Source: Rhodanobacteraceae bacterium
GTDB taxonomy: Bacteria > Acidobacteriota > Terriglobia > Terriglobales > Acidobacteriaceae
Assembly (NCBI GenBank): GCA_025350865.1
Contig: JANXWZ010000196.1
Coordinates: forward strand, 5,895 to 69,894
Length of the DNA: 64,000 nt
Reading direction: 5' to 3'
Of the stretch, positions 19,978 to 20,934 are shown in pieces. Position numbers and translations under genes: made by a program. Each line of letters opens with the position of its first letter. Positions within the stretch are counted from its first letter, which is position 1. The notes under the pieces were generated by a model. That model was not told the DNA's origin. It worked only from the letters and a program-made list of their open reading frames with translations, and searched no databases.

Positions 19978-20934
19978 ATGACGTATCAACCTCAATTCGG
20001 CGACATCGCGCACCTTGGGCACATCGAGCTCTTAACCCCGAAGTTCGAGGAGAGCCTGGCATTCTTCACCAACACGATGGGACTGCATGTGTCCGGGCAG
20101 ACCGACAACTCGGTCTTTCTGCGTGCCTGGGCAGATTATGAACGGTACACATTGCAACTCACTCGCTCGAACACATCCGGCCTGGGCCATGTGGCCTTCC
20201 GCGCCCGCAGCGCAAAAATCCTCGATGAGCTGGTTCAGCATCTTGAATCGCACGGGGCCAAGGGTGAGTGGCGTCAGGAGAGCTTTGGTCACGGGTCCGC
20301 ATATCGAGTCCCGAGCCCGGACGGACATATCGTCGAAATCTACTACGAGACAGAAAAATTCCAACCTGTCGGCGATCAGGTTCCGGGCTACAAGAACATG
20401 CCGCAGCGATATCGCCCACTTGGGATTGCCCCGAAGAGACTGGATCACGTGAACTTACTCGCACAGGATATCAAGGCCTGTCGATTGTTCTTTCGCGACC
20501 TGTTAGGCCTGCGCGTCACAGAGCAGATCGTCTTCGAGGATGAAGAGATGGGCGCATGGCTCGCGGCGACGAACAAGTCGTACGACATCGCATTCACGCG
20601 CGATAAGAGCAAAGCGCATGGACGCTTTCACCACTTGACCTACATGATGGACAGCCGCGAGGACGTGTTGCGCGCCGCGGACATCCTGGTTGAATCGGGT
20701 ATTGCCATCGAGACTGGACCGCACAAGCATGCAGTAGGGCAAACCTTCTTCCTCTATTTCTACGAGCCCGGGGGCAATCGGATCGAGGTGGGAGCGGGAG
20801 GTTACCTCATCTTCGACCCGGATTGGAAGCCTGTTGTCTGGTCCAGGGAGGAACGCAGCAAAGGGCAAGCCTGGGGACTGCAGACCGTGAGCACATTCCA
20901 CACGTACGGAACGCCGCCTGAGGAGGAGGATTAA
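19978..20934 (+). CDS. Type I (VOC) extradiol ring-cleavage dioxygenase, catechol 2,3-dioxygenase-like
   Basis: Metal ligands RLDHV, GRFHH and GNRIEV, plus GPHKH and LYFYEP, align with XylE. Confidence 0.9.
   Translation: MTYQPQFGDIAHLGHIELLTPKFEESLAFFTNTMGLHVSGQTDNSVFLRAWADYERYTLQLTRSNTSGLGHVAFRARSAKILDELVQHLESHGAKGEWRQESFGHGSAYRVPSPDGHIVEIYYETEKFQPVGDQVPGYKNMPQRYRPLGIAPKRLDHVNLLAQDIKACRLFFRDLLGLRVTEQIVFEDEEMGAWLAATNKSYDIAFTRDKSKAHGRFHHLTYMMDSREDVLRAADILVESGIAIETGPHKHAVGQTFFLYFYEPGGNRIEVGAGGYLIFDPDWKPVVWSREERSKGQAWGLQTVSTFHTYGTPPEEED

Follow-up and report, generated by a model that had tools for sequence, protein, structure and literature searches.

A compact gene cluster is found on the forward strand of the window (the whole stretch of DNA analysed, 64,000 nucleotides), in the order TetR-family regulator, GalD, GalB, GalC, dioxygenase, membrane protein and tannase-family hydrolase (Table 1). 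From galB to the tannase gene the intergenic gaps or overlaps are at most 15 nt, and galD and galB are separated by 69 nt. The likely start codon of galC, judged from the ORF translation, is the ATG at 19261, which gives a 4-nt overlap with the galB stop codon. GalD scored 511.7 bits against NCBIfam NF033377 (OMA_tautomer, cutoff 440) and matched Pfam PrpF with an E-value of 7e-108. GalB matched 5cgz, the 4-oxalomesaconate hydratase of P. putida (E 1.1e-89), and GalC scored 359.8 bits against NF006731 (cutoff 179) and 335.9 bits against TIGR02798 ligK_PcmE (cutoff 304.5). The 168-aa membrane protein gave no significant Pfam or NCBIfam match. The PDB relatives of the tannase-family protein are MHETase and feruloyl esterases, and it presumably supplies gallate from gallate esters.

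Table 1. Genes of the cluster and active-site codons of the dioxygenase (positions in the window)
Feature	Position	Strand	Basis or remarks
TetR-family regulator, first cluster gene	16554..17318	+	Pfam TetR_N and TetR_C_30; with the cluster also at related loci L001, L002, L004, L008, L019
GalD/LigU-type 4-oxalomesaconate tautomerase (PrpF family)	17366..18460	+	NF033377; Pfam PrpF
GalB-type 4-oxalomesaconate hydratase (LmbE/PIG-L fold)	18530..19264	+	5cgz; Pfam PIG-L
GalC/LigK 4-carboxy-4-hydroxy-2-oxoadipate aldolase (RraA-like)	19261..19965	+	NF006731; TIGR02798
Tyr-type two-domain type I (VOC) extradiol dioxygenase, predicted gallate ring cleavage	19978..20934	+	Pfam Glyoxalase x2; PDB matches; AlphaFold2
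Predicted membrane protein, 168 aa	20937..21443	+	2 nt past the dioxygenase stop; conserved downstream in L001, L003
Secreted tannase/feruloyl-esterase-family hydrolase	21459..23183	+	Pfam Tannase, E 2.7e-128; with the dioxygenase in L001, L006, L008, L019
His157, metal ligand 1	20446..20448	+	XylE H153 / HPCD H155
Lys200 codon	20575..20577	+	K in 31/31 Tyr-type loci; A/Q in His-bearing sister group
Tyr202 codon (TAC)	20581..20583	+	XylE His199 / HPCD His200 column; Tyr in 54/54 diverse clade members
His219, metal ligand 2	20632..20634	+	XylE H214 / HPCD H214
His251	20728..20730	+	XylE His246 / HPCD His248
Thr256 codon	20743..20745	+	T/S in Tyr-type; G in His-bearing sister group; elsewhere mostly A/G/S
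Tyr260	20755..20757	+	XylE Tyr255 / HPCD Tyr257
Glu270, metal ligand 3	20785..20787	+	XylE E265 / HPCD E267

The dioxygenase gene encodes a protein of 318 aa, the translation of which includes GAWLAATNKSYDIAF, with the codon of Gly192 beginning at base 20551. Pfam PF00903 matched it in two stretches, indicating two tandem VOC domains of beta-alpha-beta-beta-beta topology. In PDB searches the best match was 9wgj (E 6e-105), followed by AphC and 3lm4 (about 1e-64), XylE (1e-34) and HPCD (1e-34). The AlphaFold2 model (pLDDT 94.3) was compared using Foldseek with a PDB library ending on 2026-04-08, and it superimposed with a TM-score of 0.94 on both AphC and 3LM4 and of 0.90 on XylE. AphC (7Q2A), the RHA1 homolog 3LM4, XylE (1MPY) and LapB (3HPV) agree with the window enzyme in fold and in the order of the domains (TM 0.83-0.94), in the metal triad and in the His248/Tyr257 equivalents. 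However, they are only 26-35% identical to it, all retain the catalytic His, and they cleave catechol or alkylcatechol substrates proximally within classical meta-pathway clusters.

The initial annotation had proposed that the conserved second-sphere His is replaced by Tyr, from a gap-free alignment with a XylE string. The string agrees with the PDB sequence, and the alignment was reproduced using HMMER, in which the dioxygenase matched XylE (1mpy_A) with an E-value of 1.3e-34 and 'wlaatnksydiaf' stood opposite 'flslstkahdvaf' with no gap in that stretch. Counting offsets through this alignment gave the XylE partners of Y202, H219, H251, Y260 and E270 listed in Table 1, thus placing the TAC codon in the His column. 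Similarly, an HPCD/MndD-type protein from Paenarthrobacter pTC2, which has H155, N157, W192, H200, H214, H248, Y257, E267 and R293 in HPCD numbering, aligned with its H200 paired to Y202.

In type I extradiol dioxygenases, His200 is the textbook acid/base residue. The other hallmarks of the type are present in the window enzyme, namely the 2-His-1-carboxylate triad of the C-terminal domain (H157, H219 and E270) and the His248 and Tyr257 equivalents (H251 and Y260), as had also been claimed at the outset; the acid/base His is absent, Tyr202 taking its column here and throughout the clade. The gene product is an intact extradiol dioxygenase of the two-domain VOC class and the Fe(II)/Mn(II) type, in which the His200 acid/base has been replaced by Tyr202. 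HPCD/MndD, also of type I and with a carboxylated catechol as its substrate, is the reference system for what His200, His248 and Tyr257 do. HPCD Asn157 and Trp192 are kept in the window enzyme as N159 and W194, whereas HPCD differs in having His200, in cleaving proximally and in carrying Arg243 where the window enzyme has Thr246.

Tyr was found at this column in 120/120 homologs sharing 68% identity or more and in 390/495 aligned family sequences, and the approximately 390 Tyr-bearing sequences span Acidobacteria, Actinobacteria, Bacillota, Thermus, Chloroflexota and Proteobacteria. Its invariance reaches down to about 45% identity over at least six phyla, and Lys200 and Thr256 strictly co-vary with it. 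Tyr is thus not peculiar to one strain, and these counts rule out a sequencing error or chance. With every other catalytic residue preserved and the Tyr unvaried in a clade that is deep and spans several phyla, Tyr202 does not represent decay, as the initial annotation had also suggested; the reading frame being intact as well, a pseudogene is ruled out. We define the Tyr-type 'K-[ST]-Y-[DE]' clade by K200-x-Y202, T/S256 and the C-terminal R293, Q297 and H308, all of which the window dioxygenase carries. Databases label this large Tyr-fixed clade 'catechol 2,3-dioxygenase'. His is kept in every structurally characterised catechol or HPCA enzyme compared here. The nearest His-bearing sequences form a small sister group (P0121-like, 40-48% identity) with the same remaining signature residues as the Tyr clade. 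Monophyly of the Tyr sequences was not recovered (NJ bootstrap 0/100), since this His-bearing group nests with them. The 63/51 ligand spacing was dropped as a marker of the Tyr type, as 45 His-type sequences have the same spacing.

Next, the gene neighbourhoods of relatives were compared. GalB, GalC, GalD or a LigJ-like hydratase adjoins the dioxygenase at 24 of the 31 Tyr-type loci, compared with 0/56 distant His-type loci; the other 7/31 Tyr-type loci had no pathway genes inside the flanks fetched. The order GalB-GalC-GalD-dioxygenase also occurs in Nonomuraea and Streptomyces, and similar neighbourhoods are found in Agrobacterium, Methylobacterium, Roseomonas, Thermus, Geobacillus and Paenibacillus. 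The expectation that Tyr tracks galBCD neighbourhoods was therefore largely borne out against the distant His-type loci, but not within the sister group, whose P0121-like genes occupy the same GalB-GalC-dioxygenase operons; because this His-bearing group has the same context, Tyr is not required for the association with the pathway. The Tyr-type gene of Thermus oshimai is clustered with pobA, GalB, GalC, DUF6282 and dehydrogenase genes, and those of Geobacillus and Paenibacillus with DUF6282, GalB, GalC and a DUF1932 dehydrogenase, without GalD. PrpF and DUF6282 did not co-occur at any Tyr-type locus.

The closest structure, 9WGJ, is a 2026 PDB entry for a 'catechol 1,2-dioxygenase' of Geobacillus zalihae (P0271), for which no paper was found in our literature search. 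It belongs to the same clade (about 50% identity) and shares the NKSYD motif, the metal ligands and a Tyr in the His200 column with the window enzyme. Its gene also adjoins GalB and GalC homologs, in a cluster with DUF6282, a DUF1932 dehydrogenase and an esterase in place of the GalD and tannase of the window. The name of the entry echoes the automatic annotation of some relatives rather than a demonstrated activity. A VOC extradiol enzyme of R. opacus PD630, the 'catechol 2,3-dioxygenase' AHK27425.1, was demonstrated by genetics and heterologous expression to remove gallate (Cai et al. 2021, PMC8442903). Its ligands H158/H221/E272 agree with 9wgj in numbering, the spacing itself not being diagnostic. 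That 9wgj might be this R. opacus enzyme was excluded, as 9wgj is 100% identical to the Geobacillus zalihae protein. Rhodococcus plasmids carried solely His-type relatives with no more than 37% identity, and no Rhodococcus protein was among the top 120 matches listed for an actinobacterial query. Our literature search found no published substrate or product for any enzyme of the Tyr clade, and no type I gallate dioxygenase or natural His200Tyr beyond PMC8442903.

The window enzyme is most likely a gallate dioxygenase producing 4-oxalomesaconate, because it lies in a tight GalD-GalB-GalC-tannase operon and no LigB-type dioxygenase was found in the 64-kb window, which likewise contained no LigI/J-type amidohydrolase and no second VOC dioxygenase. 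The predicted reaction, from gallate to 4-oxalomesaconate, and the operon partners GalB, GalC and GalD are shared with GalA of P. putida and DesB of Sphingobium SYK-6; these are type II enzymes of the LigB superfamily, with a fold unrelated to the VOC fold. The window enzyme clusters with galB, galC and galD as they do, a setting that recurs in its relatives, but shows the VOC fold instead of the LigB fold (PF02900). It would be a non-orthologous replacement, filling the role of GalA/DesB without homology.

According to the model we propose, gallate would be released by the secreted tannase-family esterase and coordinated by the dioxygenase, as a catecholate, at the metal held by H157, H219 and E270. 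The C4-C5 bond, which lies between two hydroxylated carbons and distal to the carboxylate, would then be cut to give 4-oxalomesaconate, which GalD would tautomerise, GalB hydrate and GalC split into pyruvate and oxaloacetate. Tyr202, together with Lys200 and Thr256, may take over the proton-donor or hydrogen-bonding role of His200 toward bound O2 or the alkylperoxo intermediate. We consider it rather probable that, as this model has it, a Tyr-type VOC enzyme opens the gallate ring in this operon with Tyr202/Lys200/Thr256 replacing the function of His200. Computations on HPCD indicated that His200, His248 and Tyr257 dictate proximal, distal and intradiol selectivity (PMC6308299), and the Lys200/Tyr202/Thr256 triad may be connected with the distal opening of 4-carboxylated catechols. 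A broader claim, that across this widespread clade Lys200/Tyr202(/Thr256) in place of His200 redirects oxygen insertion to the distal C4-C5 bond of such substrates, is offered tentatively and is open to considerable doubt. Tyr202 may be adaptive.

Alternatively, Tyr202 may be a historically fixed, near-neutral residue that determines neither specificity nor regiochemistry, any hydrogen-bond donor being sufficient for electron-rich substrates. The His-bearing sister group, with its shared signature residues and operon type, speaks for this explanation, and no need for an unusual acid/base residue is reported for type II gallate dioxygenases, DesB among them. On the other hand, the invariance of Tyr over such a depth and the strict co-variation of K200 and T256 suggest a constrained functional unit, and His200 of HPCD mattered enough for its engineered Q, N, E and C variants, with no Tyr among those in the PDB, to be studied structurally. 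We therefore regard a near-neutral Tyr202 as unlikely, while giving it real weight.

More improbable still is a type I protocatechuate 4,5-dioxygenase, or a general 4-carboxy-catechol dioxygenase with no preference for trihydroxy substrates, in which Tyr202 would be unrelated to the third hydroxyl. The loci with DUF6282 support such a substrate, since those of Thermus, Geobacillus and Paenibacillus resemble a protocatechuate 4,5 route more closely, with pobA in Thermus oshimai and the DUF1932 dehydrogenase without GalD in the other two, and the non-overlap of PrpF and DUF6282 fits two upstream routes feeding one lower pathway. PDB sequence searches with the DUF6282 and DUF1932 proteins of Geobacillus, however, gave no informative match. 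In the window neither a CHMS dehydrogenase nor a PDC hydrolase candidate was seen, and protocatechuate 4,5-cleavage therefore cannot reach OMA here; a tannase-family esterase is present in this operon and at four related loci. Accordingly, gallate, the substrate favoured at the outset, remains the most likely one in the window. The idea that Tyr is a signature of a trihydroxy-aromatic subfamily is only partly supported, being favoured by the gal context of most Tyr-type loci but weakened by the sister group that shares this context and by the protocatechuate-like loci.

An ordinary catechol or alkylcatechol 2,3-dioxygenase as annotated, or a proximal (2,3) cleavage of gallate as proposed for R. 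opacus, is very improbable: the protein narrowly passes the NCBIfam catechol_2_3 equivalog TIGR03211 (EC 1.13.11.2; 331.3 bits against a cutoff of 320.2), its closest characterised structures are the alkylcatechol enzymes AphC, LapB and XylE, and the R. opacus enzyme, for which the authors drew 2,3-cleavage, also cleaves 4-methylcatechol (PMC8442903), but that drawing is a guess made without product analysis, the cluster contains no genes for HMS dehydrogenase/hydrolase, 4-OT, hydratase or DmpFG and thus lacks the context of a 2-hydroxymuconic semialdehyde meta-pathway, and the neighbouring enzymes, solely GalD, GalB, GalC and tannase, all belong to an OMA/CHA route that requires a 4,5-cleavage product and was never seen at distant His-type loci.

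In summary, a VOC-fold dioxygenase with a natural Tyr in the place of His200 most likely opens the ring of gallate in this operon. To our knowledge, every gallate or protocatechuate 4,5-dioxygenase characterised to date is a member of the LigB superfamily, and the His200 replacements studied so far are engineered ones only. Should the broader claim be true, the clade would provide the first gallate dioxygenases with a VOC fold, and possibly the first such protocatechuate 4,5-dioxygenases. They would have no orthology with any LigB-type enzyme known for these reactions, and thousands of soil genomes would at present list them wrongly as catechol 2,3-dioxygenases. For the R. opacus enzyme, which serves in lignin valorisation, a VOC-fold gallate dioxygenase would also predict OMA, not a semialdehyde, as the product. 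The deeply conserved Tyr, with its co-varying Lys and Thr, provides a ready-made experiment on the control of O2 activation and cleavage regiochemistry. Since the clade scores above the cutoff of the NCBIfam equivalog for catechol 2,3-dioxygenase and bears that name, it probably misleads metagenomic inventories of soil polyphenol turnover. A VOC enzyme in the gallate slot would explain how Acidobacteria, Actinobacteria and Bacillota without GalA, DesB or LigAB break down gallate derived from tannin and lignin.

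The window dioxygenase gene encodes a two-domain type I (VOC) extradiol dioxygenase of 318 amino acids. Direct reading of the DNA placed the TAC codon at 20581-20583 at position 202 (Tyr), within GAWLAATNKSYDIAF, in which Gly192 begins at 20551. XylE (1mpy) was matched in the PDB sequence search with an E value of 1.3e-34, and 'wlaatnksydiaf' lay opposite 'flslstkahdvaf' without gaps, a XylE stretch identical to the one given in the initial annotation. By alignment offset, Y202, H219, H251, Y260, and E270 are equivalent to His199, His214, His246, Tyr255, and Glu265 of XylE, respectively, and H157 is the first metal ligand. 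An HPCD/MndD-type protein encoded by the Paenarthrobacter plasmid pTC2 served as the homoprotocatechuate 2,3-dioxygenase (HPCD) reference; it carries the hallmarks at HPCD numbers H155, N157, W192, H200, H214, H248, Y257, E267, and R293, and its His200 was aligned with Tyr202. The proposed replacement of this His by Tyr was thus confirmed by both alignments, and the metal ligands (H157, H219, and E270) and the His246/Tyr255 equivalents are kept, as had been claimed. The AlphaFold2 model (pLDDT 94.3, pTM 0.92) was superposed with TM scores of 0.94 to AphC/3LM4, 0.90 to XylE, and approximately 0.85 to HPCD. The nearest structurally characterized enzymes, AphC, its RHA1 homolog, LapB, XylE, and HPCD/MndD, all carry His at this site, in contrast to the window enzyme.

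At this position Tyr is present in all 120 of the closest database homologs, which range from 68% to 91% identity. The family alignment was compiled from three homolog searches, a representative search of 1.8 billion proteins, and fetched genome and plasmid loci, and column 202 of its 495 near-full-length sequences was occupied by Tyr in 390 and by His in 98. Across a curated alignment that covered 54 diverse Tyr-type proteins from Acidobacteriota, Actinomycetota, Bacillota, and Ktedonobacteria, Y202 was invariant, as were the metal ligands, K200, H251, Y260, and R293. Further Tyr-type members were found in Thermus, Roseomonas, Methylobacterium, Agrobacterium/Rhizobium, and Pantoea. These counts rule out decay or sequencing error as the source of Tyr202 and identify it as a clade signature, in agreement with the earlier view that it was not decay.

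The dioxygenase gene is the fifth of seven in a co-directional run, with intergenic spacings of -4 to +15 nt from galB to the tannase gene.

Coordinates of the genes in the co-directional run and of neighboring features
Feature	Coordinates	Strand	Remarks
MFS transporter	14335-15636	+	Passes TcuC tricarballylate/proton symporter subfamily model, 663 bits
Periplasmic solute-binding protein (SBP_bac_11)	15643-16590	+	After MFS transporter
TetR regulator	16554-17318		Gene 1 of run
PrpF-family protein, GalD	17366-18460		Passes NCBIfam 4-oxalomesaconate tautomerase equivalog, 511.7 bits vs 440
LmbE/PIG-L protein, GalB	18530-19264		Matches solved P. putida 4-oxalomesaconate hydratase GalB (5cgz), E 1e-89
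RraA-like protein, GalC	19261 (likely ATG) to 19965		Passes both CHA aldolase equivalogs
Dioxygenase	19978-20934	+	Between RraA-like protein and membrane protein
Multi-pass membrane protein, 168 aa	20937-21443	+	No Pfam or NCBIfam family
Secreted tannase/feruloyl-esterase-family hydrolase		 	After membrane protein; Pfam Tannase, E 3e-128
Alpha-amylase-family ORF	23202-24944	-	Large; TreZ/TreY-like by eye
Alpha-amylase-family ORF	24937-27645	-	Large; TreZ/TreY-like by eye
Alpha-amylase and maltokinase-cap fusion, 1133 aa	27791-31192		TreS-Mak-like

The lower gallate pathway, from 4-oxalomesaconate (OMA) through CHA (4-carboxy-4-hydroxy-2-oxoadipate) to pyruvate and oxaloacetate, is complete in the window. 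No LigB-type dioxygenase, LigI/LigJ-type amidohydrolase, or second VOC dioxygenase was detected within the 64 kb, nor was a candidate CHMS dehydrogenase in the gene cluster, and the dioxygenase is the sole candidate in the window for the ring-opening step. This VOC extradiol dioxygenase is intact and has Tyr in place of His200, is conserved throughout its clade, and is encoded in a gallate-type operon. The mechanical ORF list gave galC a GTG start at 19138, inside galB; the likely ATG lies in a 4-nt overlap with the galB stop codon, which suggests translational coupling. The membrane protein gene is separated by 2 nt from the dioxygenase gene and by 15 nt from the tannase gene, and counterparts with 75-80% identity lie 3' of the dioxygenase in loci L001 and L003. 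The transporter and solute-binding protein genes, immediately 5' of the TetR gene on the same strand, may encode importers of gallate or a related tricarboxylate. A trehalose/maltose metabolism block, in which the two alpha-amylase-family ORFs are convergent, occupies 23202-31192.

Gene neighborhoods were compared in 77 loci from species-representative genomes, and plasmid, chromid, and genome loci added later brought the Tyr-type loci to 31. The loci L001-L019 (56-83% identity) had Tyr in 19/19 and GalB, GalC, or GalD homologs nearby in 13/19, whereas L020-L074 (36-46% identity; Bacillales, Chloroflexota, and others) had His in all and such neighbors in none. Among the 31 Tyr-type loci, GalC was found in 20, GalB in 18, GalD in 11, a tannase homolog in 5, and a LigJ-like amidohydrolase in 6, mostly those lacking GalB. 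Because a lower-pathway gene was present in 24/31 Tyr-type loci versus 0/56 distant His-type loci, and the order GalB-GalC-GalD-dioxygenase recurred in Nonomuraea and Streptomyces, the association of the Tyr-type dioxygenase with gal genes is real and ancient. A 448-aa metagenomic protein (P0464) matched both PrpF (PF04303) and Glyoxalase (PF00903); whether a true fusion of GalD and dioxygenase or the product of a merged gene call, it mirrors the adjacency of the two genes.

In neighbor-joining trees computed without column 202, the Tyr sequences were not monophyletic, and a small His-bearing group (P0121, P0125, P0231, and many fragments with the motif IAAHELIY) was nested among them. The joint clade was recovered in 59/100 bootstrap replicates, the His group in 73/100, and Tyr alone in 0/100. 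The two share the signature residues P136, K139, Q183, R293, Q297, A298, T303, and H308 and differ at exactly three positions, A/Q200, H202, and G256 in the His group versus K200, Y202, and T/S256 in 31/31 Tyr-type loci; judged from these sequences, a K-Y-T triad alternates with A-H-G within the superclade. The His-group operons are of the same type, namely GalB-GalC-dioxygenase (L086) and DUF1932/DUF6282-GalB-GalC-dioxygenase (L088), and therefore the pathway association is a property of the superclade, not of Tyr alone. Accordingly, the suggestion that Tyr tracks with gal neighborhoods holds against the distant His-type loci, but not against this sister group.

The Tyr-type contexts do not look uniformly gallate-specific. 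The dioxygenase of Geobacillus zalihae, Thermus oshimai, and Paenibacillus naphthalenovorans is accompanied by GalB, GalC, DUF6282, and a DUF1932 NAD-binding dehydrogenase without GalD, and the Thermus locus has an additional 4-hydroxybenzoate 3-monooxygenase. PrpF (11 loci) and DUF6282 (5 loci) were mutually exclusive among Tyr-type loci. The DUF6282 side comprised L083/L084 (Geobacillus), L079 (Thermus), L092 (Paenibacillus), L088, and L006, and the GalD/PrpF side comprised the window gene (17366-18460), L001, L002, L004, L007-L009, L019, L080, L081, and L090; DUF6282 was usually accompanied by the DUF1932 dehydrogenase. On one reading, DUF1932 and DUF6282 are a candidate CHMS dehydrogenase and PDC hydrolase of the protocatechuate 4,5 route; the pair may provide another way into the OMA/CHA pathway or a substitute for GalD. 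The Tyr-type gene of Alicyclobacillus dauci (L091, CP104064.1) adjoins a LigB-type dioxygenase and a classical meta-pathway in full, which comprises an aldehyde dehydrogenase, two FAA hydrolase-family genes, a DmpFG-like pair, a 4-OT-family tautomerase, and Amidohydro_2; GalB and GalC are absent from this locus, whose context is unlike that of the rest of the clade. In Saccharomonospora, the Tyr-type gene adjoins genes for a Meth_synt_2 protein and a ferredoxin reductase. Tyr202 is thus a clade signature strongly linked to the OMA/CHA pathway, but the proposed adaptive signature specific to a trihydroxy-aromatic subfamily is not established; it is weakened by the occurrence of His-bearing sister proteins in operons of this type and by those Tyr-type genes whose contexts look protocatechuate-like.

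The best PDB sequence match was 9wgj ('catechol 1,2-dioxygenase'; E 6e-105, with the NKSYD motif), which is 100% identical to a Geobacillus zalihae protein and for which the literature search found no paper; it is an unpublished 2026 structure, and no biochemical characterization of the Tyr-type feature was found in the literature searched. Throughout the Tyr clade the name 'catechol 2,3-dioxygenase' is applied via NCBIfam TIGR03211, which the window enzyme passes narrowly (331 vs 320 bits), and the 'catechol 1,2-dioxygenase' label on a few entries including 9wgj mirrors automatic annotations of a few relatives. Neither label is probably right for an enzyme of the gallate/OMA pathway; the naming concerns the window enzyme, 9wgj, P0318, P0332, and P0503. 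Neither a natural His200Tyr nor a type I dioxygenase for gallate or for protocatechuate 4,5-cleavage was described in the literature searched, and the HPCD His200 variants in the PDB were only the engineered H200Q/N/E/C. HPCD H200F reportedly performs intradiol cleavage of 2,3-dihydroxybenzoate. According to a review of computations, Tyr257, His200, and His248 dictate proximal extradiol versus intradiol selectivity and disfavor distal cleavage (PMC6308299).

Gallate degradation by R. opacus PD630, a strain that has no DesB/LigAB homolog, requires a VOC 'catechol 2,3-dioxygenase' (AHK27425.1); expressed in E. coli, this enzyme removed gallate and also cleaved 4-methylcatechol, and 2,3-cleavage was the authors' guess, made without determining the product (Cai et al., Sci Adv 2021, PMC8442903). 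Compared by published numbering alone, its ligands (158/221/272) are numbered as in 9wgj, which in our sample applies only to Tyr-type proteins; the 63/51 ligand spacing was also found in His-type proteins. Two His-type relatives from Halalkalibacterium ligniniphilum L1 (L035 and L048, 40-41% identity) may include the characterized Mn-dependent BLC23O, which prefers 3-alkylcatechols and does not use protocatechuate or pyrogallol (PMC8671467), and which would be a useful functional contrast to the Tyr-type enzymes.

Gallate is the best guess for the substrate of the window operon. It would be set free by the tannase-family esterase and chelate the metal coordinated by H157, H219, and E270. Addition of O2 would be followed by cleavage of the ring at the C4-C5 bond, which joins two hydroxylated carbons and is distal to the carboxylate, and the product would be 4-oxalomesaconate, to our knowledge the sole product usable by GalD, GalB, and GalC. 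Tyr202 is a putative proton donor and hydrogen-bond partner replacing His200, its pKa possibly tuned by the co-varying Lys200, and Thr256 may belong to the same network. Since the type I enzymes studied so far, as far as we know, cleave 4-substituted catechols proximally, the K-Y-T triad may be linked to distal regiochemistry.
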